A stretch of 64,000 nt of DNA from an uncultured Gemmatimonadales bacterium (lineage in GTDB: Bacteria > Actinomycetota > Acidimicrobiia > Spongiisociales > UBA5794): contig CAXMRC010000135.1 in NCBI GenBank assembly GCA_964195945.1, forward strand, positions 16,518-80,517, in the 5' to 3' direction. The notes beneath the pieces were generated by a model. The model saw only the letters and a list, made by a program, of their open reading frames with translations. It was not told the origin of the DNA and did no database searches. Below, one piece after another: positions 8,517 through 58,822 of the stretch. The position numbers and the translations under genes were made by a program. Numbering within the stretch: the stretch's first letter is position 1; each line of letters starts with the position of its first letter.

Positions 8517-9914
8517 ATGCCAGGCACGTTGATCAAGGGCGGGACAGTCATCACCGCGACAGAAACCATGCGGTGCGACGTGCTCATTGATGGCGAGAAG
8601 ATTGTTGCTCTACTCAACGACGCAGCCCCACAACCGACTGTTGACTTTGTGATCGATGCGACCGACCGGCTCGTGTTCCCCGGCTCGGTCGATGCCCACA
8701 CTCACATGGAGATTCCCTTTGGTGCAGCGACGTCGAAGGATACCTTTAAGACCGGCACCCAGGCGGCCGCCTGGGGTGGTACGACCACCATCATCGACTT
8801 CCCGATCCAAATGAAGGGCGACTCGCTGCTGGGGAGTTTCGAAGACACGATGGCGAAGGCTTCGGGTAACTCTGCTATTGACTTTGGTTTCCATCAGATT
8901 GTTGGCGACGTCAACCAGCAGTCACTAGCTGAGCTCGACCTTATTTTCAAAGAAGGCATCACCTCGTACAAACTCTTCACCGCATATCCGGGTGTCTACT
9001 ACTCAACAGACGCTGAGGTGGCCCGAGTCATGCAGTGGGCCTCCGGGAACGGCTCGACAGTGCTGATGCACGCCGAGAACGGTTCTGCGATCGACCTGCT
9101 GCGAGAGCAAGCGATAGCGCGCGGCGACACCTCTCCACTTGCTCATGCCGCGACCCGCCCCGCGGCACTTGAGGGCGAGGCCGCACACCGCGTAATCCTC
9201 CTAGCTGAGATGACAGGAGCTCCGGTATACATCGTTCACATCAGCGCCCGGCAGGTTGTCGAAGAGATTGCAGCCGCCCGCAGCCGCGGAACCAACGCAT
9301 TCGGGGAGACCTGTCCGCAATATCTGTTCTTGGAACTGTCGATGCTTGACCAAGGCTTTGAAGGGGCCAAGTTCGTCTGCTCTCCACCCCTGCGCGACCC
9401 TGCCGAGGGTCACCAGGAGGCCTTGTGGCACGGGCTCGCCAACGGCGCTCTTCAGGTCATCGCAACCGACCACTGTCCCTTCGATTTCGAGGGACAGAAG
9501 ACGCTCGGCAGGGACGACTTCACCAAGATCCCCAACGGGCTACCGGTTGTTGAACATCGCTTCCCACTGATGCTTCATGCGGCGCTTGCGGAGAAGCGGT
9601 TTTCGCTGAATCGTATGGTCGAAGTCAGCTCCACTGCTCCGGCCAAGATGTTTGGGCTCTATCCGCAGAAGGGAACTATCGCGGTCGGGTCCGATGCCGA
9701 CATCGTCATCGTTGATCCCGGGGCGAGTGATGTGCTTTCTGTGGAAACGCACCATATGAACGTTGACTACTCATGTTTCGAAGGCATGGAATTGACCGGC
9801 AAAGTTAAGACTGTGTTGTCAAGAGGGACCGTGGTCATCGCCGATGGCCAGTTCAAGGGGAGCAAGAGTCACGGTCGGTACCTTCGGCGTGGTGTCAACC
9901 AATTGCTCTTTTGA
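8517..9914 (+). CDS. Dihydropyrimidinase / D-hydantoinase (cyclic amidohydrolase)
   Basis: KGGTVIT, a metal-binding DAHTHME and KLFTAYPG are present. An AAGGAGG sits 6 nt upstream of the ATG at 8517. The ORF track starts at 8496. Confidence 0.8.
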   Translation: MPGTLIKGGTVITATETMRCDVLIDGEKIVALLNDAAPQPTVDFVIDATDRLVFPGSVDAHTHMEIPFGAATSKDTFKTGTQAAAWGGTTTIIDFPIQMKGDSLLGSFEDTMAKASGNSAIDFGFHQIVGDVNQQSLAELDLIFKEGITSYKLFTAYPGVYYSTDAEVARVMQWASGNGSTVLMHAENGSAIDLLREQAIARGDTSPLAHAATRPAALEGEAAHRVILLAEMTGAPVYIVHISARQVVEEIAAARSRGTNAFGETCPQYLFLELSMLDQGFEGAKFVCSPPLRDPAEGHQEALWHGLANGALQVIATDHCPFDFEGQKTLGRDDFTKIPNGLPVVEHRFPLMLHAALAEKRFSLNRMVEVSSTAPAKMFGLYPQKGTIAVGSDADIVIVDPGASDVLSVETHHMNVDYSCFEGMELTGKVKTVLSRGTVVIADGQFKGSKSHGRYLRRGVNQLLF

Positions 9915-9984
9915 AATCCGTGTTGAATATCAATTTGTCGTGCACCGATTCAAGTATGGGACCCACTTTGGTCGATAGCAGAGG

Positions 9985-10191
9985 GTGAGAGCCGACGAAG
10001 CAGACGAGAGGTTCAGGCTGGTGCTCAAGATCCGTGACAGCGTTAACGCCGGGACCTATCAAATAGCCACGGAAGATGTTGCTGATGCCATCATCGCAGG
10101 CCCGTTTATGCTCTCGATGTCGAGCCAGTTGTCGTTAGGTGATCGAATCGTTCGCCTTGCTGAGGCGCCCAAGCAAGACGACCGCGCCTAG
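9985..10191 (+). CDS. Small ORF with a FlgM-like anti-sigma C-terminal motif (speculative)
   Basis: ..VNAGTYQIATEDVADAIIAG.. resembles the FlgM C-terminal helix (I..G.Y.VD...IA..L). It overlaps the 3' end of the convergent DUF368 gene by ~57 nt. The coding evidence is weak. Confidence 0.2.
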   Translation: MRADEADERFRLVLKIRDSVNAGTYQIATEDVADAIIAGPFMLSMSSQLSLGDRIVRLAEAPKQDDRA

Positions 10192-20100: not shown

Positions 20101-20236
20101 GACCACCCGTAACAAGATGAGCCAGGCGGTGGACGATGGTTGTGGTTTTGCCGGTCCCCGCTCCGGCGATGACGCGAAGGGGGAGGAGAGGATATTCGAT
20201 GATTGCTCTCTGCTCAGGTGTTGGAACGAAGTTCAT
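17183..20236 (-). CDS. adnB: AdnB-like UvrD-family helicase with a C-terminal RecB-type nuclease and Fe-S cysteines
   Basis: Walker A is [10 protein letters not shown], and the UvrD motifs [14 protein letters not shown] and HRAKGLEW follow. The C-terminus has a PD-(D/E)XK region plus [10 protein letters not shown]. The ATG at 20236 overlaps the upstream stop (ATGA). Confidence 0.75.
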
Positions 20237-23200
20237 ACGAACTCTGGACCTCCATCGGCCCACGCGGGGCATAAGGAACGTAGACCGCATCGATCACAGT
20301 GCGGACCGGGATTTGGTGACCAGTCCTCGTTTTGGATTCCAATGGCGATCGCGGTGAGGCGTGCTTCGACCTCGTCAAGTCCTTCCATCTTGAACTTGCG
20401 GACTGCGACCTTCTTGTTCGACGCCATCGGGTACCACAGTTCGGCCCCGACGACCGCGCCCAGCGCACCGATTTCCTCGTCACGCTGTGCGGCGAGTGCG
20501 TAGAACCCCAGCTGCAGCGACTCGCTGGCCTCGGCAACGGTGACCGGGCTTCTGCTTGTCTTGTAGTCGACCACGGTTACACCGGCGGGGGACACATCGA
20601 TCCTGTCGGCTCGTCCTGTCCACCTGACACCGGCTATCACCGTGTCGAGCCTTTGCTCCAAAACCGCGGCAGTTCGCTGCGGGGCCGGCCAGTTCTGGTA
20701 GAGCTTGGCCAAGCCAGCGTGAGCGCGCTGCACCCACGAGTTCGAGAAGGGGGGACCCTCAAAGTCGTATGGATCGAACCTGTCGTTTAGCTCTTGGAGC
20801 GCCTCCTCCAGAGTGCTGTGAGGCCGGCCGTCGGCGACGGCACGTTTTTCGGCTGCTTCCAGCACGTCGTGGATCAGCGTCCCAAACGTTGCGTGGATGG
20901 AGCTGTCCGATCCCACCTTGAGACGCCGTTCAAGTGCATAGCGACGGGGGCAGATTTCGTAGCCCTGCGCTTGCGAGGGAGACAGAACCGGATCGGCACC
21001 GACGAGGAGGTCGTTCGGTCCGCGGGCGGGGACACCGCTGAAAAGCTGCGGTGAGCGTAGATCCCAGGTTGGGCCGTCGGCGAGGGTTGTCAGTGCTGCA
21101 AGACGTGAGGGCGATGGTGCTGCCACGTCTGTCAAACAGCGTCGTAGTGCAGATTCGGCTTCGCTGGGGGTGACCGGTAGACGAGAAGATTCCTGGGGTG
21201 TGGTGTCAGGGGAAACGCATATCTCGATGCGGCCGGCTGGTCGGCCCGGATCTTGGTTGATGGTGGCGGCGATCTTGGTGAAGAACCTGCTCGGTCTTCC
21301 CGGCCCGTCGTCGAGGCCCCGCTCGGTTGCCGTCCACACGACCCGGCGTCGCGCCCGCGTCATTGCCGTGTAGGCGAGACGGCTCTCTTCCTGAAGACGG
21401 AAGGCGCGGTACTCGGCGGTGTCAGTCGGCACGTGAGGGAGAAGGTGCCTGACTCCGAGGAGAGAGTCGCGAGACCGGAGATCTGGGAAGACACCATCGA
21501 CGGCATCGGCGATGAAGACGACATCGAGCTCAAGCCCTTTCGCTTGGTGCAGGGTCGTCAAGGTAAGGCGATCACCGTCGGGTCGGCGGTAGCTGAGCAG
21601 CGGCTGTGCTTCGAAGTCTTCGCTTTCAGCCAAACCGCGGTAGTCGAGCAGCGTCCCTTTTGGATTTCTTTCTTCCCATCGATTGAGCACCTGCGCTAAC
21701 GACCGCCATGCCGCCCGCTCTTCGGCCGCGGTCGGGTCATTGACCATCTCTTCGATTCCAGGCAGCTCGCTCCATACACGCCACAAACCTTGCACCGCAG
21801 GAACCTGATTGGCCCAGCTGGCGTCTGCGATGAGGTTGGCCAGCGGAGCCCAATCTGGGAGGGTGGCCCTGATCGCGGGGGCCCAGGCGCCGGTTGATCT
21901 TGCGGTTCTTTCCAGTGCTCGGTACGCCCCAATGGTCAACCCGACGCGGGATCCGAGCAACACCCTCCGCAAGGATTGATTTGCTGCGATTGGTCCGTCA
22001 CACGCGGTAGCAGCTACGGCGAGGTCGAGTAGAAAGCGAACCGCGGGCTGGTCGGTGAGCCTGCTGCCGGGTAGTTCGTGGGGCACATGACGTCTCTCCA
22101 GTGCCCGTGACATGTCAGCCAGGAAGCGACGTTTGCTGCGAACGAAGACTCCGATGTTGCTGTACGGGATTCTCTCCGTCAGGTGGAGGCGCTGTGCCTC
22201 GGATGCGATCCATTCTGCTTCTTCTACCTGTTGGTCAAACAGATACGCCTCGACAGCACCGCGACCTGCGGCAGGGACTACGGCTCCTGTCGCCCCTGGG
22301 AGGTCTCCGGTGGTTACGTGTACGGCCGCGTTGAGGATGGTCTCTGGCGTACGGAAGGAGGTCGTCAGCAGAATGCGTGTTGCCATCTCATCCGAGGCCC
22401 CAAAATCGCTCTCGAACGCAGCGACATTTTCGACGGTGGCGCCGCGGAAGCTGTATATCGACTGGTAGGGATCGGCGGCAGCTGCGATATGCCGTCCGCG
22501 ATGCTGTAGAGCTTGTAGCAGTCGAACCTGGGCTGTAGTGGTGTCCTGGTACTCATCAACCAGGACATAGCCAGGGGAGTCGACCGTTGCGAGATCGCCG
22601 GACTCCAGCAAAGTGACCGCGGTAGCGATCAGGGTTCCGTAGTCGATGCGGTCGGTCCCGCGTAGCTCGTTGGTGTACGTCTCGAGGAATTGAGGGAGGC
22701 CTTTCCAATCATCCCGCTGCATCGTGGCGAGGGAGGTCGGTGTGTGCATCTGCTCGGCGGCGCGCAGTATGAAGTCGGTCACTTCCTTTGCAAATGTCTG
22801 AGTGCCAAGAAGCTGCGAAAACGCCTGTGACCACGACCCGGGGTTCTCCGCGAGGAGAAGACGATGTACAAGTGCAACTTGTTCCGGACCAGTCAGGATC
22901 TGAGGGTTGACGGTCCAACCCGCCTGCTCGGCATGGTTCTCGACGAGCCGTGCGGCATATGAGTGAAAAGTTGCGACATCGAGTTCCCCGATGGTCGCGG
23001 GTATGCCGGCGCGGATTCGTTCTCGAACCTCTGCCACACCACGGCGGGAGAAGCCGAGGATCGTAATAGCCTCGGGGCGAACTTCCTTTGCGGTAAGCAA
23101 GTGGATAGCCCGACGCACCAGAAACTCGGTCTTGCCGGTTCCCGGCCCCCCGACAACTATCTGTGGTCCGTCAGTTAGGGCGACCGCGTCGGCCCATCCG

Positions 23201-23247
23201 TCCGGTTCGACAGCGATGATCGGCGCGTCTTGGGACCATTGGCTCAC
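20233..23247 (-). CDS. adnA: AdnA-like UvrD-family helicase-nuclease subunit
   Basis: The N-terminus has VVGGPGTGKTEFL, and DEYQDT, IYSFRGA and HQAKGLE follow. The C-terminal nuclease region ends in HCDRCGLRSLC. The start overlaps the stop of the upstream nuclease gene. Confidence 0.75.
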   Translation of the reverse strand: MSQWSQDAPIIAVEPDGWADAVALTDGPQIVVGGPGTGKTEFLVRRAIHLLTAKEVRPEAITILGFSRRGVAEVRERIRAGIPATIGELDVATFHSYAARLVENHAEQAGWTVNPQILTGPEQVALVHRLLLAENPGSWSQAFSQLLGTQTFAKEVTDFILRAAEQMHTPTSLATMQRDDWKGLPQFLETYTNELRGTDRIDYGTLIATAVTLLESGDLATVDSPGYVLVDEYQDTTTAQVRLLQALQHRGRHIAAAADPYQSIYSFRGATVENVAAFESDFGASDEMATRILLTTSFRTPETILNAAVHVTTGDLPGATGAVVPAAGRGAVEAYLFDQQVEEAEWIASEAQRLHLTERIPYSNIGVFVRSKRRFLADMSRALERRHVPHELPGSRLTDQPAVRFLLDLAVAATACDGPIAANQSLRRVLLGSRVGLTIGAYRALERTARSTGAWAPAIRATLPDWAPLANLIADASWANQVPAVQGLWRVWSELPGIEEMVNDPTAAEERAAWRSLAQVLNRWEERNPKGTLLDYRGLAESEDFEAQPLLSYRRPDGDRLTLTTLHQAKGLELDVVFIADAVDGVFPDLRSRDSLLGVRHLLPHVPTDTAEYRAFRLQEESRLAYTAMTRARRRVVWTATERGLDDGPGRPSRFFTKIAATINQDPGRPAGRIEICVSPDTTPQESSRLPVTPSEAESALRRCLTDVAAPSPSRLAALTTLADGPTWDLRSPQLFSGVPARGPNDLLVGADPVLSPSQAQGYEICPRRYALERRLKVGSDSSIHATFGTLIHDVLEAAEKRAVADGRPHSTLEEALQELNDRFDPYDFEGPPFSNSWVQRAHAGLAKLYQNWPAPQRTAAVLEQRLDTVIAGVRWTGRADRIDVSPAGVTVVDYKTSRSPVTVAEASESLQLGFYALAAQRDEEIGALGAVVGAELWYPMASNKKVAVRKFKMEGLDEVEARLTAIAIGIQNEDWSPNPGPHCDRCGLRSLCPAWADGGPEFV

Positions 23248-24086
23248 GACGCGGCGACTGCGGCGTTCGCCTCATCGGCAAATGCAGGGCAGCGATCTTG
23301 GAACTGGCACCAACCACACAGCTTGCCTGGTCGGGGAGGGAAATCGTTTTTGACGATTGCCCGATTGATCGCAGACCACAATGCCTCTAACTTTCGCTGT
23401 GTTGCGTCCAGTTGGAGGTCGTTCACCGGTATCTCGTAGACGGTTGGCCCGTTGAGGTACATCAGCTTCAGGCGGACTGGAGTTCGTCCGATCCGCTTCC
23501 TGATCAATAACGCATAGATTTTTAGGGCAAAGAACGCCGGGATTGCATACTGCTCGGGAGGAGCTTTACCGGTCTTGTAATCAGTGATCACAACACCGTC
23601 CGGTTCCTCTTCCATACGGTCCAGGATCCCTCGAATCGTCATATCTCCGAGATCCTCGGTCATGTCCAGCTCGCGGTCGAGTGGCTCGAGTTGGGTCGGA
23701 TCCTCTACCAAGAAATAATTGGCGAGAACACCGAGACTTTCGATGCCCCAGGCCCGCTCATCTTCAGTGTTGTCAAAGAGGTCGGGGAACTCTTCGTCGC
23801 GGAGCTCCACCCACGCCTTGCGGAACAACCCGTAAAGGGTTTCGGGTGTTCGTTCTTTGGCGGCTAGGTCAAATAGCCATTGCAGTGCTAGATGAGCTGT
23901 TGTCCCGCGTGCCTGATAGACCGTTGGCGGAACTTCGATCTTGTCGATCGCCTTGAATTTGAAAAGCTGTGGGCAGACTTTGAAGTCGCCGGCGCGGCTT
24001 GGCGATAGCGTCTCCAAGGAGGTCGGCGGAGACATCTCCGGCTTCGGTCGAGGTGTCTTCTGCGGGGTTTTGTCAGGAGTTGTCAT
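23244..24086 (-). CDS. Cas4-like / RecB-family PD-(D/E)XK nuclease with a 4-Cys Fe-S cluster
   Basis: An N-terminal Cys (FKVCPQLF) pairs with a C-terminal CGWCQFQDRC, giving the C..CxxCx5C pattern. A DYK(TG) motif is present. GGAGA sits 5 nt before the ATG at 24086. The ORF track extends to 24344. Confidence 0.65.
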   Translation of the reverse strand: MTTPDKTPQKTPRPKPEMSPPTSLETLSPSRAGDFKVCPQLFKFKAIDKIEVPPTVYQARGTTAHLALQWLFDLAAKERTPETLYGLFRKAWVELRDEEFPDLFDNTEDERAWGIESLGVLANYFLVEDPTQLEPLDRELDMTEDLGDMTIRGILDRMEEEPDGVVITDYKTGKAPPEQYAIPAFFALKIYALLIRKRIGRTPVRLKLMYLNGPTVYEIPVNDLQLDATQRKLEALWSAINRAIVKNDFPPRPGKLCGWCQFQDRCPAFADEANAAVAAS

Positions 24087-24239
24087 CGTTTCTCCGACTA
24101 TACGCCGGCCCACCGACATAAACCACATCGATGTAGTTATCCACAGCCGGACGCGTCGATGGAGCAGCGGCAACAGCCGATGGTGATGCATCGCGAAACA
24201 ATTTCGTAGCACGCGAAAACTATAATGCGATCTGGTTTG

Positions 24240-24975
24240 ACTGCCCGCTGCGGTCGGCTTTACGTTATGGGTCCTTGAGGGCTCCACCCATGGAGGAGCG
24301 GAATTCGGAAGGACGGGACCAGGGAAACCGGACCCGACCGGCACCGGATTCTATGACCAGGGCGCTTGCGTCCACGGTCACCCGGAATGGATACATTCCG
24401 TCTCGGCGGCGCTTCGGCAAAGCCGGGAAACCCGCCGCAGGGACTTCGGTCTCAGTGGCACGTCGGACAGGCTTCGGCCTCAAAGACAGCCTGCGGGACT
24501 TCGGTCCGGCAGATGCTGCGGCTTCGGCCACAGCAAAACTGGGTGAGCTTCGGCTCGACCAGCGTTCTCCGAGTGAGGCGCATCGCCCACCGGGTGCGGG
24601 CTTCGGCCCAAGCCAGGTAGACGGTTGCCGCACCCGCAGGACCGATAAGACTTCTGGTCTTATCAACACACCGGTGCGATCGGTGGTCACGAGGGTTTCC
24701 TCGATTGAGAGCTTCGGCTCTGAACTGAGAGTCGTCAGGCTTAGGTCTGGTGGCAAGCCAGCGGGATCAAAAGGTCACACGGGTTGCCCCGAGCGAGGGC
24801 TTCGGCACTCGCAAGGAGCGGCACGGCTGGCTCGTGGCAGGACTTCGGTCCTGAACCGAGCGAGACGAGCAGCGACTGGAAGGGCCCGACCCCTCGGGGT
24901 AGGTGCCCGACCGAAAGCAAAGAATCCCCGAGAGGGTGGCGGTTTCGGCCAAAACTCCCTCGGGGTTTTCTTTGT
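24240..24975 (+). ncRNA. Candidate large structured RNA: an array of ~11 cUUCGg tetraloop hairpins ending in a terminator-like hairpin plus U-tract
   Basis: No convincing ORF covers the region. Perfect small palindromes recur at 24411, 24442, 24470, 24495, 24520, 24545, 24598, 24708, 24797 and 24840. Each carries a UUCG loop on the plus strand only. Nested junctions occur, for example CGGCGG..GCUUCGGC..CGGGAAACCCG..CCGCCG. The last hairpin (24918-24962) is followed by uuuucuuuguu. Confidence 0.35.
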
Positions 24976-24981
24976 TCGTGT

Positions 24982-25590
24982 TCAGCCGCAACCAGTGGCG
25001 AGCTCGATAAGGGTTACGGTGTCGGATTCCTCACGCCCACTGAGCAGCCCACGAATCTCAGTCCCGGCAATGCGGAACGACCACACATCCAGCTCCGTGT
25101 TGCCATCGACAGTCAAATCCGACCCGTAAGCGTCGGTGAGATCGCTGACGGTGCTTCCCAACCCCACACCAGCCGCGGTTGTCAATCTGAGGCCGCGGGG
25201 GTCAAATCCGCCCACGTTTTCGGAGTAGTCGTAGCCGTAGGAATAGGAGTAGAACCAGCCCCCAAGACGGTTCGCACCATCTCTGATGAAAATCGTCAAC
25301 AGGCTTCCCCACCCAATCGCCCGCATTTCGGAGCCGGGGCATGATCCGTAGATATTTGGCTCCGAGACAATCCAGTCGGAATCGTGATCGGGCTCACCGA
25401 AGAGGGCCGAGATCTCGGCGATCACGGTCTCCGGGGGCACCCCAAGCAGCACATCGCCGAGTCCATCATCCTCCAATACCAACTCCGCCAGCGGAGCGGT
25501 GTCGGACCCTTCCGGGCCGGGCTCGGTCACGGCGCACCCGGACGCCAGCAAGACCACGAACGCCAGGACAAGATGAGAGGTTGATCGCAT
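24982..25590 (-). CDS. Lipoprotein of unknown function
   Basis: Signal peptide plus lipobox MRSTSHLVLAFVVLLASGCAV. The ORF extends to 25839, and I take the signal-peptide Met at 25590 as the start. Confidence 0.5.
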   Translation of the reverse strand: MRSTSHLVLAFVVLLASGCAVTEPGPEGSDTAPLAELVLEDDGLGDVLLGVPPETVIAEISALFGEPDHDSDWIVSEPNIYGSCPGSEMRAIGWGSLLTIFIRDGANRLGGWFYSYSYGYDYSENVGGFDPRGLRLTTAAGVGLGSTVSDLTDAYGSDLTVDGNTELDVWSFRIAGTEIRGLLSGREESDTVTLIELATGCG

Positions 25591-25620: not shown

Positions 25621-27414
25621 ATGGTCCAACGCGATAAGCTCCGTGCGGCTGGAGGAGAGCCGATGGATGACGATACAGGCAGCATGACTGACGGTTCGGG
25701 GCCCCGGGTCACGCGCGAGCTCGACCTCGTCGGTCGGCGGCGTGAGTTTCGGATCGCTGGTGTCACCGTTGCCGGTCGACGGCGACGCCCATCGGGAGAA
25801 GCTGCACCACTGCCACGGGAATTGCGGACAGCGGGTCATCTCTGGTTGCTATCCGGGCTTCTCATGGTCGCTGTCTGGATATCTCTCTTTTTGGTTCCGG
25901 CTTCAACAGACTGGTGGAGCGTCCAGGATCACAAAGCCTTGGCCTGGTTTGTCGACCTACGTTCGGACAGCCTCACCTCCGTTGCCAAAGCCTTCAACGC
26001 ACTGACCTCTGACATGTTTATCCGGGTGCTGCGGGTCGGGACTCTGCTCTCGCTGGTGTTTATCAAGAGATGGCGTCATTTCTTTGCGGTGCTGTTGGCA
26101 ATTCTGATCGTGCAGGGCACAGGCGAGGCCCTCCAGGGCATGGTCGGACGTCCCCGTCCGCTGGTTCCGATCCTTGCCGACTGGCGCGGTGCCTCCCACC
26201 CATCGCTCCCGGTGGCAGCGTTGGCGGTCACCTTTGGCGTTATGGCCTATGCGCTTCTTCCCAGCAGTAGGTGGAGACGAGGGATACTTGTTGGCTCGGG
26301 GGCGCTCATGGTCGTGGTGGCGTTTGCCAGGGTATATCTCGGGGTTGACCACCCATCCGATGCTTGGGTATCGCTGCTGTTTGCTCCCGCGGTGGCGGTC
26401 GTGGTGTTTCGGCTGTTCGCCCCGGAGGCTGCATTCCCGGTGTCATGGAAGCGTGGCGTCACTGCTCACCTCGACGTGTCGGGGCGCCGCGGTGTTGCTA
26501 TCCGTAACGCGGTGCGAGATCAGCTGGGTATCGAACTGGTCTCCATCGAGCCATTCGGGCAGGAAGGATCCGGCGGCTCGACACCCCTACGACTCGAAAT
26601 GGCCCCTGACCGAGCTCACGGTGAGAACTATCTATTCGCAAAGCTCTACAGCCAGACCCACCTGAGGTCGGATCGTTGGTACAAGGTGGGGAGGACAATC
26701 CTCTATGGAGCGCTCGAAGATGAGCTGCGCTTCACCTCGGTGCGCCGCTTGGTCGAGTACGAGGACTATATCCAGCGGGTGATGCGGGACTGCGGCATCC
26801 CGGCCGCGGAGCCGTTCGGAATCGTCGAGATAACCCCTGACAGGGAATATCTGATGGTGAGTCAATTCCTTTTCGAATCAGAGGAGTTGACGGATGCCGA
26901 AGTCGATGTCGATCTTGTCGACGACGCCCTCGGTGTTATTCGCCAGATGTGGGATGCCGGACTGGCCCACCGCGACATCAAACCTGCGAACGTGATGGTT
27001 AGGAACAATCAGGTCGTGCTTATCGACGTTGCGTTCGGAACGGTTCGCCCCAGCCCATGGCGACAAGCTGTGGATCTAGCCAACATGATGGTGATCCTGG
27101 CGTTGCGAACCGACGCGGAGCTCGTATACCAGCGGGCGCTACTGCAGTTCGATTCGCATGACATCGCCGAGGCATTCGCCGCAACACGGAGCGTTACGTT
27201 GCCGTCACAATCGCGTAGCTCGCTCGCTCTGTTGAAGCGTGAGGAAGGGATCGACATCGTCAAGGAATTCCGTCGCTTGGCGCCGGCAGCAGAGCCGATT
27301 TCGATACAGCGGTGGAGCACCCGGCGTATTGGCCTGACCGTCGGTGCTGCCTTCCTCGCAGTCCTGTTGCTCAGCATCATCGTGTCCGAGATCTCCGGAG
27401 GGGGCATGTTGTGA
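25621..27414 (+). CDS. Membrane protein fusing a PAP2 lipid phosphatase to a Hanks-type Ser/Thr-kinase-like domain
   Basis: The PAP2 motifs are VGRPRP, SHPS and ARVYLGVDHPSD. The kinase-like part has a G-loop FGQEGSGGS, a beta3 Lys in LFAKLY, an alphaC Glu, a catalytic loop LAHRDIKPANVMV and IDVAFG about 19 residues on. A C-terminal TM helix closes the protein. Confidence 0.6.
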   Translation: MVQRDKLRAAGGEPMDDDTGSMTDGSGPRVTRELDLVGRRREFRIAGVTVAGRRRRPSGEAAPLPRELRTAGHLWLLSGLLMVAVWISLFLVPASTDWWSVQDHKALAWFVDLRSDSLTSVAKAFNALTSDMFIRVLRVGTLLSLVFIKRWRHFFAVLLAILIVQGTGEALQGMVGRPRPLVPILADWRGASHPSLPVAALAVTFGVMAYALLPSSRWRRGILVGSGALMVVVAFARVYLGVDHPSDAWVSLLFAPAVAVVVFRLFAPEAAFPVSWKRGVTAHLDVSGRRGVAIRNAVRDQLGIELVSIEPFGQEGSGGSTPLRLEMAPDRAHGENYLFAKLYSQTHLRSDRWYKVGRTILYGALEDELRFTSVRRLVEYEDYIQRVMRDCGIPAAEPFGIVEITPDREYLMVSQFLFESEELTDAEVDVDLVDDALGVIRQMWDAGLAHRDIKPANVMVRNNQVVLIDVAFGTVRPSPWRQAVDLANMMVILALRTDAELVYQRALLQFDSHDIAEAFAATRSVTLPSQSRSSLALLKREEGIDIVKEFRRLAPAAEPISIQRWSTRRIGLTVGAAFLAVLLLSIIVSEISGGGML

Positions 27415-28979: not shown

Positions 28980-30202
28980 GATTGTGCGGTCACATAGGCG
29001 TCACCGGCTAATGCGGTCCGCTCCGATTCTGACATTCGCCACGTTTGGTTCCGCTGCCACAGCACATAGGAAGCTGCGCCAAGCGGAATTGGTAGAACAT
29101 ACGTTATAGCGCGGAAGACGAGGATCGCAGCAACCACCTCGGTCTTGGTGACCACGTCTAGTCCGATCGTTAGCGCCGCAACGTAGCCCAACTCGACGAC
29201 TCCGACACCACCCGGTGTCACCGGGAGGGCAGAAATCAATCTGACAAATGCGAACGCGGCCAGCACCTGAATCCAAGAGAGCTCTTCCTGGCTTACGCCG
29301 GTATGACGCAGGGTGATCAGTAGCACGGCATAGAGGGACAGGTGGCTGAGCATGGTGGCCAACGTCAGTTGTAGCCAGCGGTGCTGCAGAAGCCCGATCG
29401 TATCGCTGCGGAATCCGGCAGCCCGCTCACCCCAACTGCTGACAGGGCCTTTGCGCAAGATGCGGAGCAACTTTGACACCAGTCGTTCCAAAGCAGTACC
29501 GACGGATCGAGCAAGCCGATCGCTACCGAGAATCATCCAGAGACCTGTTACTGCGCCGCCTAAGGCCGCAAGCCCTATTGCCGAGGCCGTGATCCAAGCA
29601 TTCGAGACTTCGCTTTCAATGGCAAGCAGGCCAAGTGCGAGGATCGGCATGCCCATCTTGACGAAGTTGTTCCAGATCCCGGTCACCACGGCAGAGCGGG
29701 TTATGGCCGGCACAGAGAAGCCCCAAGAAGTCAGCATTGCGAGCGTGACGCCGACACCGATCGCCCCACCGCCGGGAAGAGTATTGGAGACGGCTGTGGA
29801 CGACTGATTGACCACAGTGGCTTCTCGCAAGCGAAGCCCGGGAAGCGCAGCAACGAGGACGAACCAGTAGGTAGCGAGATTCCAGAGCGCAACAATGCCC
29901 AACGAGATCGACTCCAGCCAGGTAAGTGACCGGACTGTTCCCCACACCTCGGTGTAATCAGCGATCCGGGGCATCACGCCAGCAAAGATGGCGACGACGA
30001 CGACTATCGAGATGACGGACTGGACAATTCGTCGTGTCTTTGGGGGCGGAGTTGTCCCGGATTGGTCTATGGACTTGGCCGCTTTGTCGCTCACTGTTTG
30101 GACCTCGTTAGTCGCCGTACGCGACACTACACGTTGGCCTCGTCTGCCCGGGCTGCGAGCCATAAACGGGTCGCGAAACAAAACAAAAAGGCGCGAAATC
30201 AA
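28976..30202 (-). CDS. Flippase-like integral membrane protein (lysylphosphatidylglycerol-synthase TM-region / UPF0104-like)
   Basis: About 8 TM helices with a GGGA(I)G(V)G segment, recognised by architecture. Its stop overlaps the PAP2 gene's stop region (convergent). Confidence 0.5.
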   Translation of the reverse strand: MISRLFVLFRDPFMARSPGRRGQRVVSRTATNEVQTVSDKAAKSIDQSGTTPPPKTRRIVQSVISIVVVVAIFAGVMPRIADYTEVWGTVRSLTWLESISLGIVALWNLATYWFVLVAALPGLRLREATVVNQSSTAVSNTLPGGGAIGVGVTLAMLTSWGFSVPAITRSAVVTGIWNNFVKMGMPILALGLLAIESEVSNAWITASAIGLAALGGAVTGLWMILGSDRLARSVGTALERLVSKLLRILRKGPVSSWGERAAGFRSDTIGLLQHRWLQLTLATMLSHLSLYAVLLITLRHTGVSQEELSWIQVLAAFAFVRLISALPVTPGGVGVVELGYVAALTIGLDVVTKTEVVAAILVFRAITYVLPIPLGAASYVLWQRNQTWRMSESERTALAGDAYVTAQS

Positions 30203-30255
30203 GTAACCAGTTTTGCTTGACCAAAGTGATTAGTGCGTCCTATGTTGTTCTCAGT

Positions 30256-30530
30256 CGTTGAGGCGGGAAACCGCAGCAGCGGCGCCGGGGCCCCGCAAGG
30301 GGTCACGGAGATCCGGAAGGGACGTCGACCCGCAAGGGAAGGTGGCCACCCGTAAGGGAAGTCCGGGGACGAGCCCCAGTGGTTCGACCCCACGGGCCCA
30401 GAAAGATCGGCCGGTTGAGACCTCGGTTTCAGCAGGTATCTCAGTTGAGCCGAAAGGCACCGACTGAGAAGGAAAACCCCGAGAGGGTGGAAGCTTCGGC
30501 GGAAACTCCCTCGGGGTTTCTCCGCGTCTC
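30256..30530 (+). ncRNA. Candidate structured RNA rich in GNRA tetraloop hairpins, sharing its 3' hairpin module with the 24240-24975 element
   Basis: The plus-strand hairpins are CCCCgcaaGGGG, CCCgcaaGGG, CCCguaaGGG and GCCgaaaGGC (inside CTCAGT..ACTGAG). A T-loop-like GTGGttcgaccCCAC is also present. The 3' module 30469-30527 is ~85% identical to 24918-24972. Confidence 0.3.
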
Positions 30531-30653
30531 AAGTACCTTCGCATCGTTCTTGCGGATAGTTGAGCGCTAGTGGTGTGTCCGCAAGTTCGCAGAGACCCGA
30601 GCACCAACCCAGAGGATCGCCAGTCCCTGAGTGAGACGGCGTATGATTGGGCC

Positions 30654-31286
30654 ATGGCATTTCCAGAGAACATCCTCACCGACGACGAGTCCATCATCCG
30701 ACAATTCCGACCCCACTGGAGGATGCTTGCCATCCCCGTGCTGTGGGTCATCGCCGCCATTGTGGCGATCGTTGTGGTTTTCCAAGTTATCGACGCCGAG
30801 GGTTGGGTAGCGATAGCCCTCGTCGCTCTGATCTTGCTTGCGTTGATCCCACTAGGTGTGAACCCGTTCATCAAGTGGTTCTTTACTTCCTATGTGCTGA
30901 CGAGCGAGCGTCTCATTACCCGTACCGGGATGATCGCTCGCAGCGGGATCGAACTCCCGCTGCAGAACATCAACAATGTGCTGTTCAACCAAAGCATCAT
31001 CGAACGGTTCCTCAAGTCAGGGGATTTACTGATCGAGTCGGCAGGGGAGAGCGGACAGAGCGAGTTCACGAACATTCCGAATCCCGAAGAGTTCCAATCC
31101 TTGCTGTATCGGACCCGTGAAGATCAGAGCCGCAACACCGCGGCTGAGGAGTCAGCGATCGCGGCCGAGATCACTCGGGACCCGACGGAACAACTCGAAA
31201 GAGCGGCGAAGCTTCGCCAAGAGGGTGTGCTTTCGGATACGGAGTTCGAGGATATGAAGCGCAAGATCCTCGGAGATGCCGAGTAG
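30654..31286 (+). CDS. bPH_2 (YdbS/YdbT-like bacterial PH domain) membrane protein with a C-terminal SHOCT domain
   Basis: A two-TM hairpin is followed by a PH-like region and a C-terminal LRQEGVLSDTEFEDMKRKIL. The ORF opens at 30570, and the likely start is the internal Met at 30654. Confidence 0.5.
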   Translation: MAFPENILTDDESIIRQFRPHWRMLAIPVLWVIAAIVAIVVVFQVIDAEGWVAIALVALILLALIPLGVNPFIKWFFTSYVLTSERLITRTGMIARSGIELPLQNINNVLFNQSIIERFLKSGDLLIESAGESGQSEFTNIPNPEEFQSLLYRTREDQSRNTAAEESAIAAEITRDPTEQLERAAKLRQEGVLSDTEFEDMKRKILGDAE

Positions 31287-57454: not shown

Positions 57455-58822
57455 TTTGCCTAACTCGGGCGAGGTGTATTGCTCCTGGTCGTACTGGTTC
57501 GCCCTGGGATTCTTGGAGACTCTCGAGTGTGGAAAGATGAGAGTTATGGCACGAGAGATTACGTCGGGAAAACCGACCACACGGCGGTATTCGAATGAGG
57601 AGAAGGATCGGGCGGTTCGTCTGGTTTTCCAGCTTCGTGAGGAGTTGGGGATGTCGCAGGGGACGGTGGTTCGGGTTGCTGACCAGTTGGGTTACGGCAC
57701 CGAGTCGGTGCGCCGGTGGGTAGCCCAAGCCGAGATTGATGCCGGGGGTGTTGCGGGTATCTCGACTGCGGAGCGGGCCAAGATATAAAAGCTTGAGCAG
57801 GAAAACCGGGAGCTACGATGAGCCAACGAAATCTTGAAGCGGGCTTCGGCTTTCTTTGCGGCGGAGCTCGACCGCCCACAGAAGTAATGGTGCAGTTCAT
57901 TGACGAGAATCGTGACGACTTTGGGGTCGAGCCTATCTGTGCGACGTTGCAGGTGGCCCCATCGACATATTACGAAAACAAGTCTCGGATACCATCGGCT
58001 CGTGCGATCCGCGATGCGGTGATGATGCCGATCCTGTTGGCCCTGTTTCAGGCGAACTACTCGGTCTATGGGGTCCGGAAACTGTGGAAGGCAGCGTTAC
58101 GTGACGGTCACACGATTGGCCGTGACCAGGTGGCTCGTCTGATGAAGGCTCTTGATATTGAGGGAGTTTCACGTCGTCGACGGGTTCGCACGACCCGCCC
58201 CGACGACAAAGCCGTCCGGCCCCAAGATCTTGTCGAGCGGGACTTCACTGCCGATCAGCCGAACCAGCTGTGGGTGACGGACCTAACGTTTGTTCCGACC
58301 TGGCAAGGTGTTGGGTATGTGTGTTTCATCATCGATGCGTTCTCCCGCCAGATCGTCGGGTGGCGGGTTGCTTCCAATATGAGAACCCAGATGGTCCTCG
58401 ACGCCTTAGAGATGGCCCGCTTTTCTAGAGGCACCCGCCTCGAAGGTCTTGTGGCTCATTCCGATGCCGGGTCGCAATACACATCGATCCGATACGGGGA
58501 ACGCCTCGACGAGATCGGAGCAATACCATCGATCGGATCGGTCGGTGATTCGTTCGATAATGCACTTGCGGAGTCGGTTAACAGTCTCTACAAAGCCGAG
58601 CTGATCTACGGACCAGATCAGGGACCGTGGCGCAGCATCGAGGACGTCGAACTGGCTACTTTGGGTTGGATCCACTGGTACAACACCAAGCGGATCCACA
58701 GCTATCTCAACGACGTTCCACCGGCCGAATTCGAGGACACCTACCATGCCCAACAACGGGCAAGACAGTTGATTGGAAACCAATAGAACGAGCCTCCAAC
58801 AAACCCAGTACGCACCATACGG
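57455..58822 (+). mobile_element. IS3-family insertion sequence (orfA 57537-57788, orfB 57818-58786)
   Basis: orfA is an HTH transposase N-terminus (..AVRLVFQLREELGMSQGTVVRVADQLGYG..). orfB carries an rve DDE integrase core (WVTDLTF..IDAFSR.., HSDAGSQYTS, DSFDNALAES). The imperfect terminal inverted repeats are GGTCGTACTGGTT and AACCCAGTACGCACC. The element lies between upp and ffh. Confidence 0.75.

Follow-up and report, generated by a model that had tools for sequence, protein, structure and literature searches.

The window, by which we mean the whole stretch of 64,000 nucleotides that was analysed, contains at about 30 kb an intergenic gap between two divergent genes, an LPG_synthase_TM gene on the minus strand and a bPH_2/SHOCT gene on the plus strand. 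The preliminary description of this DNA had called the former gene flippase-like and had placed its start at 30202. Homology favours an ATG at 30166, which is probably the real start; the intergenic gap is then about 487 nt long. For the bPH/SHOCT gene, databases list a 238-aa GTG-started ORF (30570, P0001), which probably extends too far upstream; the ATG at 30654 is the more likely start. As the preliminary description had proposed, the gap holds no credible ORF. A hidden frame on the plus strand at 30258-30467 was rejected, single-base indels between orthologues breaking it and thereby ruling out a conserved ORF. A GUG-started 30-codon frame read by eye in the terminal module was also rejected because its start codon is lost in orthologues.

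Reading of the region 29900-31000 showed that the hairpins and sequence features listed earlier are all present: CCCCgcaaGGGG at 30291-30302, CCCgcaaGGG at 30329-30338, GGTGGCCACC at 30341-30350, CCCguaaGGG at 30349-30358, GUGGuucgaccCCAC at 30380-30394 and CUCAGUUG..GCCgaaaGGC..CGACUGAG at 30440-30468. The features used below are the following.

30172-30178 and 30192-30198, plus strand: two CGCGAAA boxes, 13 nt apart, with exactly 18 nt between box 2 and the -35 hexamer
30217-30222 and 30241-30246, plus strand: sigma-A-type core promoter found by promoter scan, TTGACC and TATGTT with an 18-nt spacer
30253-30255 (approximate), plus strand: predicted transcription start
30255-30282, plus strand: P1, the 5'-terminal hairpin, GUCGUUG-AG-GCGG[GAAA]CCGC-AG-CAGCGG, 10 pairs
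30290-30303, plus strand: H3, CCCC[GCAA]GGGG
30310-30408, plus strand: multibranch domain closed by the long-range helix H4 (RNAalifold, pair counts)
30310-30314 with 30404-30408, plus strand: H4, GAUCC with GGAUC
30323-30344, plus strand: H5, with CCC[GCAA]GGG, inside the multibranch domain
30349-30358, plus strand: H6, CCC[GUAA]GGG, inside the multibranch domain
30361-30397, plus strand: H7, inside the multibranch domain
30410-30437, plus strand: H8, CCGGUUGAGACC[UCGG]UUUCAGCAGG, 10 pairs
30440-30468, plus strand: H9, CUCAGUUG-A-GCC[GAAA]GGC-AC-CGACUGAG, 11 pairs
30471-30523, plus strand: terminal module, a putative intrinsic terminator, core 30477-30516
30642-30647, plus strand: -10 box TATGAT of the bPH/SHOCT gene, 6 nt before its ATG (30654), separating two transcription units
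24192-24975, plus strand: long paralogue of about 700 nt, the '24.2-kb element', with the same boxes, -35/-10 spacing and terminal module

The plus strand of the gap folds at z = -4.1 with respect to shuffled sequences, as compared to z = -2.4 for the minus strand. An RNAalifold consensus of 14 close orthologues comprises 85 pairs in 11 helices. In this alignment, standard pairs occupy 97.7% of the pair cells and compensatory changes are observed in 19 pairs. None of 500 shuffles matched any of the pairing or covariation measures, and slid-partner controls gave 35-55% paired cells. The comparison with orthologous intergenic regions, which the preliminary description had called for, thus reveals structural conservation. 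When the RNA is read from the minus strand instead, pairing drops from 97.7% to 83.5%; because of its G-U pairs the fold is strand-specific, and the proposal of a structured RNA on the plus strand is confirmed. A family-wide alignment of 91 rows, which was fitted to the model structure, has 93.2% of its cells paired (37-58% in slid controls), with 79 of the 85 pairs showing compensatory changes.

Nine covarying helices, with caps that are mostly GNRA or UUCG, make up the short RNA. In P1, 10 of 10 pairs are compensatory family-wide and 91% of the cells are paired. H3 also covaries, becoming for instance CCUC..GAGG, and in the 91-row alignment each of the five pairs of H4 has changes in both partners. 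Four pairs of H8 are compensatory among the close orthologues, while the GCC/GGC part of H9 becomes GUC/GAC and ACC/GGU in relatives. The junction strand GGAAGGGA of the multibranch domain is conserved; in distant orthologues a local NNUCC[GGAA]GGNNN hairpin, judged by eye, appears as an alternative to that domain. The interior is the least conserved part of the molecule. Homologous hairpins exchange GCAA for UUCG between lineages, in line with the loop-swapping family that had been suspected from the 24.2-kb element, and the loops would therefore be stability caps rather than recognition sites. Two smaller structural proposals fared less well. The T-loop-like hairpin has to be given up in favour of a competing helix, CGAGCC/GGUUCG, that covaries (A-U in 9 rows, G-C in 4 rows). 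The self-complementary GGUGGCCACC is indeed present, but it is not conserved and is divided between two helices.

A covariance model built from the 14-orthologue alignment retrieved full-length homologues upstream of bPH throughout the clade (E-values between 1e-80 and 1e-12) and also matched the 3' part of the long RNAs. On the plus strand of the window, this latter match is 24696-24976, at E = 2e-10, and nothing else was matched beyond the short RNA itself.

The Rfam search that had also been proposed gave chance matches only for both elements. With Rfam 15 at E <= 10, three such matches were found in the region of the short RNA (13-15 bits, for thresholds of 37-55), and chance matches only for the long paralogue. 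At the gathering threshold, the sole match in the whole window was an ALIL pseudoknot (RF01497) on the plus strand at 57848-57961 (89 bits, E = 1.9e-21). We take this pseudoknot to be the frameshift signal of IS3-family transposases, and an insertion sequence is therefore probably located there.

Resemblances to known RNAs were considered individually. UCC[GGAA]GG recalls the apical loop of SRP RNA (4.5S). The domain IV helix of SRP RNA combines a GNAR loop with a conserved symmetric loop (AGG / AGCA), but the flanks here are AGA/ACGU and there is no SRP match at E <= 10. The resemblance to RNase P RNA is limited to 11 nt (GGAAGUCCGGG as compared to GGAAAGUCCGGG) in a hairpin confined to close relatives, and no RNase P match was obtained. 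A tRNA-like or T-loop element (5-bp stem, UUCRANY loop) was rejected since the loop becomes UCCGGCC in orthologues and ARAGORN finds neither a tRNA nor anything similar in the window. The collected loci do not include a 16S rRNA gene either.

The RNA ends with the terminal module. From 5' to 3', it consists of a purine-rich flank, a CCCCGAG-A-GGGU arm, a tandem G.A/A.G 2x2 loop, GC[UUCG]GC, an ACUCC-C-CUCGGGG arm and a U-rich tail. A 43-nt pattern of the module with 37 fixed bases has exactly two matches in the 64 kb, at 24926-24968 and 30477-30519, where 0 are expected; the module is indeed common to the two elements, as first noticed. A G+C-rich hairpin placed directly before a U-rich tract is what defines an intrinsic (Rho-independent) terminator, and the module has this form. 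Across 205 unique modules, the stem is interrupted, with some 17 standard pairs in addition to the tandem G.A loop, and the tail reads UUU(C/U)(U/C)CC; the tail of the window copy, UUUCUCC, is short. The tandem G.A/A.G 2x2 loop and an A.C mismatch are conserved in the same set, and the apical stem beneath the cUUCGg cap covaries (G-C in 137, A-U in 20, G-U in 11). In contrast with every other helix, all of which covary, the 7 outer pairs CCCCGAG/CUCGGGG are invariant in 89-91 of the 91 rows, although the apparent invariance of both module and promoter is somewhat inflated, as loci and alignments were partly gathered with the module and promoter patterns, the least biased set being the bPH-anchored one. 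Such invariance points to a constraint on sequence, beyond pairing. Possible causes are contact with a protein, constraints imposed by RNA polymerase or by termination, and an alternative fold; CCC[GAGA]GGG and CC[CUCG]GG, both within the outer stem, are themselves tetraloop mini-hairpins. In the long RNA, the module ends 14 nt before the stop codon of a convergent lipoprotein-like gene (24982-25500, minus strand), and it probably acts there (24926-24982) as a bidirectional terminator.

The region upstream of the RNA is equally constrained in its geometry. Both elements of the window show identical spacing from the boxes to TTGAC(T/C)-N18-TA(C/T)GTT, and TCGCGAAACAA-N10-CGCGAAA has only 2 occurrences in the window, each preceding one of the two RNA elements. 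TTG and TA..T are invariant in 32 orthologues. Among 174 unique promoters, to which the inflation mentioned above also applies, the gap between box 2 and the -35 hexamer is 18 nt in every case, that between the boxes is 13 or 14 nt, the -35/-10 spacer measures 17 or 18 nt and the consensus is TTGaCn-17/18-TAcnTT. The boxes would lie near -58 and -78, on the same helix face, an arrangement typical for an upstream activator site, and they are presumed to be an activator or extended-promoter site. In 1.18 Mb of related loci, searched on both strands, the full promoter pattern has 70 matches, all in the bPH orientation. The module follows within 1.5 kb downstream of 65 of them, and the remaining 5 have a variant or looser module. 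With a sigma-A-type promoter and its two boxes on one side and a hairpin followed by a U-tract on the other, the element would give an RNA that spans ~30253 to ~30525, about 270 nt, transcription being predicted to start near 30253 and to stop at the module.

About 45 Acidimicrobiia MAGs have a homologue upstream of the bPH/SHOCT gene, as do at least 120 metagenome contigs, the latter from a scan with the module pattern. Close homologues of the bPH/SHOCT protein come from uncultured Acidimicrobiia only. A bPH-anchored search of 185,579 species genomes gave 74 loci. In L001-L047, with bPH identity down to ~46%, promoter pattern and module both occur upstream of the bPH gene. Among the more distant L048-L074, only L062 carries the cassette; at the loci examined, bPH is preceded by other genes. 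Synteny and covariation persist down to ~46% bPH identity in genome loci and to ~40% in metagenome contigs. L047 and L062, the most divergent cassette-bearing bPH loci, have one RNA only in the available sequence.

Two size classes were recognized, a short RNA of 256-330 nt adjoining the bPH gene and a long one of 420-860 nt adjoining a RecB-like nuclease gene. The conserved order starts with an AdnAB-like helicase gene and the nuclease gene, both leftward, followed by the long RNA (rightward), a lipoprotein-like gene (leftward), optional inserted genes, the short RNA (rightward) and bPH (rightward). The interior of the long paralogue is a UUCG-rich hairpin array. Over 10 orthologues, it has 184 consensus pairs, of which 72 are changed on both sides, with 95% pairing. 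The gene that follows it is always convergent.

Some observations concern the neighbours of the long RNA. On the minus strand, 20233-24050 encodes a UvrD-helicase/PD-(D/E)XK fusion (AdnB-like) and then, as a protein of its own, a PDDEXK_1 nuclease of 268 aa that carries a Cys cluster at its C-terminus. In all cases, the long RNA gene and this nuclease gene are divergent and 50-300 nt apart, so that the CGCGAAA boxes of the RNA gene may act on the nuclease promoter as well. On the plus strand, 25621-27414 encodes a 597-aa protein whose matches, PAP2 and protein-kinase-like, are weak. This gene, a second PAP2 gene and the LPG_synthase_TM gene make up a block of ~5.5 kb inserted between the two RNA genes in close relatives of the window and absent from the more divergent loci of the clade.

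In the metagenome contigs, the nuclease..bPH neighbourhood recurs wherever flanks are visible, with 1-3 tandem cassettes and RNAs of 88-900 nt. Further body classes of ~90, ~146 and ~151 nt share the promoter and the module. The ~90-nt and ~146-nt RNAs (L076, L086, L095, L100, L102, L124, L150, L154, L162 and others) have an invariant GGGGGCCCGCUUUCCCGG core with a CCCGCU loop, unlike anything in the window copies; in contigs with visible flanks, they are placed between the genes for the RecB-like nuclease and bPH, often nearest the nuclease. The ~151-nt class (L083, L110, L115, L123, L134, L136, L151, L170) has another genomic setting: the adjacent ORFs, judged by their N-terminal sequences alone, resemble methyltransferases, TetR and large membrane transporters. 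Cassettes thus also occur outside the nuclease..bPH locus. A scan of viral contigs gave 0 matches, and a phage or mobile origin was rejected on this ground.

We conclude, with a probability of about 0.8, that ~30253-30525 on the plus strand is a stand-alone gene for a highly structured non-coding RNA of ~270 nt, the short paralogue of an undescribed family in one uncultured Acidimicrobiia clade. The preliminary description had left the choice between an independent small RNA and a leader of the bPH gene; the element's own promoter and terminator and the separate -10 box of bPH speak for the former. Our literature searches found no earlier description of such RNAs in Acidimicrobiia. The short RNA can be compared to the raiA motif, OLE, ROOL and GOLLD, which are likewise orphan, stand-alone structured RNAs supported by covariation. 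The raiA motif also occurs in Acidimicrobiia (PMC10861870). However, raiA RNAs are single-copy, with a highly conserved core containing pseudoknots and typically no terminator stem, whereas the cassette RNAs have a variable core and are conserved in promoter and terminator. In view of the single-copy nature of raiA and of the lack of an Rfam match here, identity with this motif was rejected.

What such RNAs may do was considered from the design of their bodies. In 136 folded RNAs, there is one hairpin per 34 nt, and 1028 of 1185 hairpins carry tetraloops (503 GNRA, 395 UNCG). The linkers consist of 82% purines, with 13% C and 5% U, and show a 6-fold enrichment of GGAA. GGA occurs 1335 times in the RNA bodies as compared to 866 expected, a 1.5-fold enrichment to which the GGAA loop of the module contributes much; these figures hint weakly at a GGA-binding partner and do not amount to evidence for one.

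In organisation, the closest analogy is with the Csr/Rsm sponge family (CsrB, CsrC, RsmX/Y/Z). In both groups, a genome has several paralogous stand-alone genes whose lengths differ widely, repeated hairpins are gained and lost, a Rho-independent terminator closes the gene, and a conserved site for an activator, in the cassettes a presumed one, lies upstream. Csr/Rsm RNAs bind CsrA/RsmA by many GGA motifs that are exposed in hairpin loops or single strands. The paralogous arrays might therefore titrate an RNA-binding regulator via GGA/GGAA, a response regulator at the boxes driving their synthesis. Several paralogues of 88-900 nt with changing hairpin numbers, rigidly spaced boxes resembling an activator site and the GGAA and GGA counts are all consistent with this idea. 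However, the defining feature of Csr/Rsm RNAs, GGA in the hairpin loops, is absent, the loops being generic GNRA/UNCG caps. As a CsrA signature, the GGA enrichment is real but modest, in large part due to the GGAA loop of the module and expected from purine-only linkers. There is no CsrB or Rsm match in Rfam, and a sequence-invariant 3' terminator distinguishes the cassette RNAs from the Csr/Rsm RNAs. To our knowledge, CsrA is generally absent from Actinomycetota, and this clade has no known CsrA partner. Overall, we consider a sponge doubtful.

A small RNA acting in trans by base-pairing, through a conserved single-stranded seed, also appears improbable. The stand-alone architecture with a terminator would suit such an RNA, and GGAAGGGA and the purine-rich linkers are conserved. 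Nevertheless, the single strands are short, almost purine-only and different between body classes, and the sole sequence invariant throughout the family is buried in the terminator stem. Paralogues of 700-900 nt are moreover atypical of seed-type small RNAs.

It is quite unlikely that the RNA binds RNA polymerase in the manner of 6S or Ms1 RNA, a role that it might fill in Actinomycetota without canonical 6S RNA. It is, like these RNAs, stand-alone, structured and in the range of 200-300 nt, with a strong-looking promoter, and it belongs to an actinobacterial lineage, as does Ms1, which binds the RNA polymerase core. Ms1 is ~300 nt long, widespread in Actinobacteria and syntenic with genes for an HAD-IB hydrolase and an oxidoreductase (PMC9130861). 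The neighbours of the short RNA are instead LPG_synthase_TM and bPH_2/SHOCT, so that the synteny differs. The short RNA forms a string of hairpins with one multibranch domain rather than a rod with a central bubble, its 5' and 3' ends do not pair with each other, whereas those of 6S RNA form a long irregular duplex, no 6S match was obtained even at E <= 10, and the RNA has at least two paralogues, with lengths of 90-900 nt.

The preliminary description had also raised the possibility of a cis-acting leader, riboswitch or attenuator with a terminator-type expression platform, in which the RNA would sense a signal and its terminator would decide on read-through into bPH/SHOCT. As with a terminator riboswitch, a structured RNA lies directly upstream of a co-oriented gene in most of the clade and ends with an intrinsic terminator. 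The distance between the terminator and the bPH ATG, however, varies from 45 to 565 nt, the spacer sequence is unrelated between lineages, and at one locus an apparent ORF intervenes. Lineage-specific direct repeats were observed in some of these spacers: ~150-nt duplications in L041 (~9668-10000) and L044 (~9558-10000), three copies of CCACTCGTCCCGGG in L033 (~9870-9930) and GAGTA-rich repeats in L025 (~9717-10000). The bPH gene has its own promoter: in 46 of 48 orthologues a CGTATGATTGGGCCATG -10 hexamer (TAnnnT) stands 6-7 nt before the start codon, for a background of 0.5%. A -10 box this close to the start codon is a leaderless-mRNA signature in actinobacterial promoters, and the bPH mRNA is therefore predicted to be leaderless. 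In L020, L037 and L040, this -10 box is kept in the absence of any RNA upstream of bPH. The long paralogue, with identical promoter and terminator, always faces a convergent gene and not a co-oriented one. Moreover, the interior of the RNA is its most variable part, the opposite of what is expected of an aptamer. The element lacks a conserved ligand core with exclusive pairings and a shared 5' UTR position at constrained distance, by which riboswitches are recognized; no conserved anti-terminator was seen by eye, the sole candidate, CCACCC with GGGUGG, not being conserved. The variable spacer, the -10 box of bPH, the RNA-less orthologues, the convergent gene of the paralogue and the variable interior together exclude a riboswitch or attenuator for bPH, leaving this reading a very small probability.

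Finally, that the element is no RNA gene at all but a cluster of DNA palindromes (REP/MITE-like) or a bidirectional terminator or insulator is scarcely tenable: as DNA, the module does form an inverted repeat, with weak reverse-strand matches to the model, and the copy of the long paralogue sits between convergent genes, but the fold is strand-specific (97.7% as compared to 83.5%), its orientation relative to a conserved promoter is constant, synteny and covariation are kept to ~46%/~40% bPH identity, and the 64 kb contain no more than two copies, viral contigs none.

Returning to the stand-alone RNA gene, the short RNA is most likely a stable RNA that would act in trans, co-regulated with its paralogues and possibly binding a protein through the invariant 3' module. 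Each member of the family is a cassette that comprises, in order, two CGCGAAA boxes at a fixed distance from a sigma-A-type promoter, a hairpin at the 5' end, a variable hairpin array and a near-invariant, predicted Rho-independent terminator. Roughly three quarters of the hairpins in the array are capped by GNRA or UNCG, with almost purine-only linkers. With a hairpin at either end and without single strands rich in pyrimidines, on which Rho or RNase E could act, the transcript would be stable. Such features suit an untranslated RNA that escapes Rho and 5'-end-/AU-dependent RNases. A factor binding the CGCGAAA boxes would regulate the paralogues together. Promoter geometry fixed to the nucleotide and a terminator stem devoid of covariation suggest that a regulator, and possibly an RNA-binding partner as well, is dedicated to these RNAs. 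As to mechanism, we tentatively prefer, at less than even odds, a protein-binding RNA whose invariant 3' module would be the common handle for a clade-specific partner. A more specific version, in which the module (CCCCGAG-A-GGG, tandem G.A, cUUCGg, CUCCCUCGGGG) would be a dedicated protein handle for a whole RNA regulon under one CGCGAAA-bound activator, is possible but unlikely. Should it hold, an Actinomycetota lineage would possess a small-RNA system of the Hfq/ProQ or CsrA kind; we know of no global small-RNA-binding protein in Actinomycetota.

If the stand-alone gene is real, a false riboswitch candidate would be removed from in front of the bPH/SHOCT genes, which would be leaderless, and cassette genes could be found by a simple annotation rule. 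The family would be unusual in that its expression signals are more conserved than the RNA bodies. It would provide a widely conserved RNA family, present in at least 45 MAG species and at least 120 metagenome contigs, for a bacterial class with almost no known regulatory RNAs.
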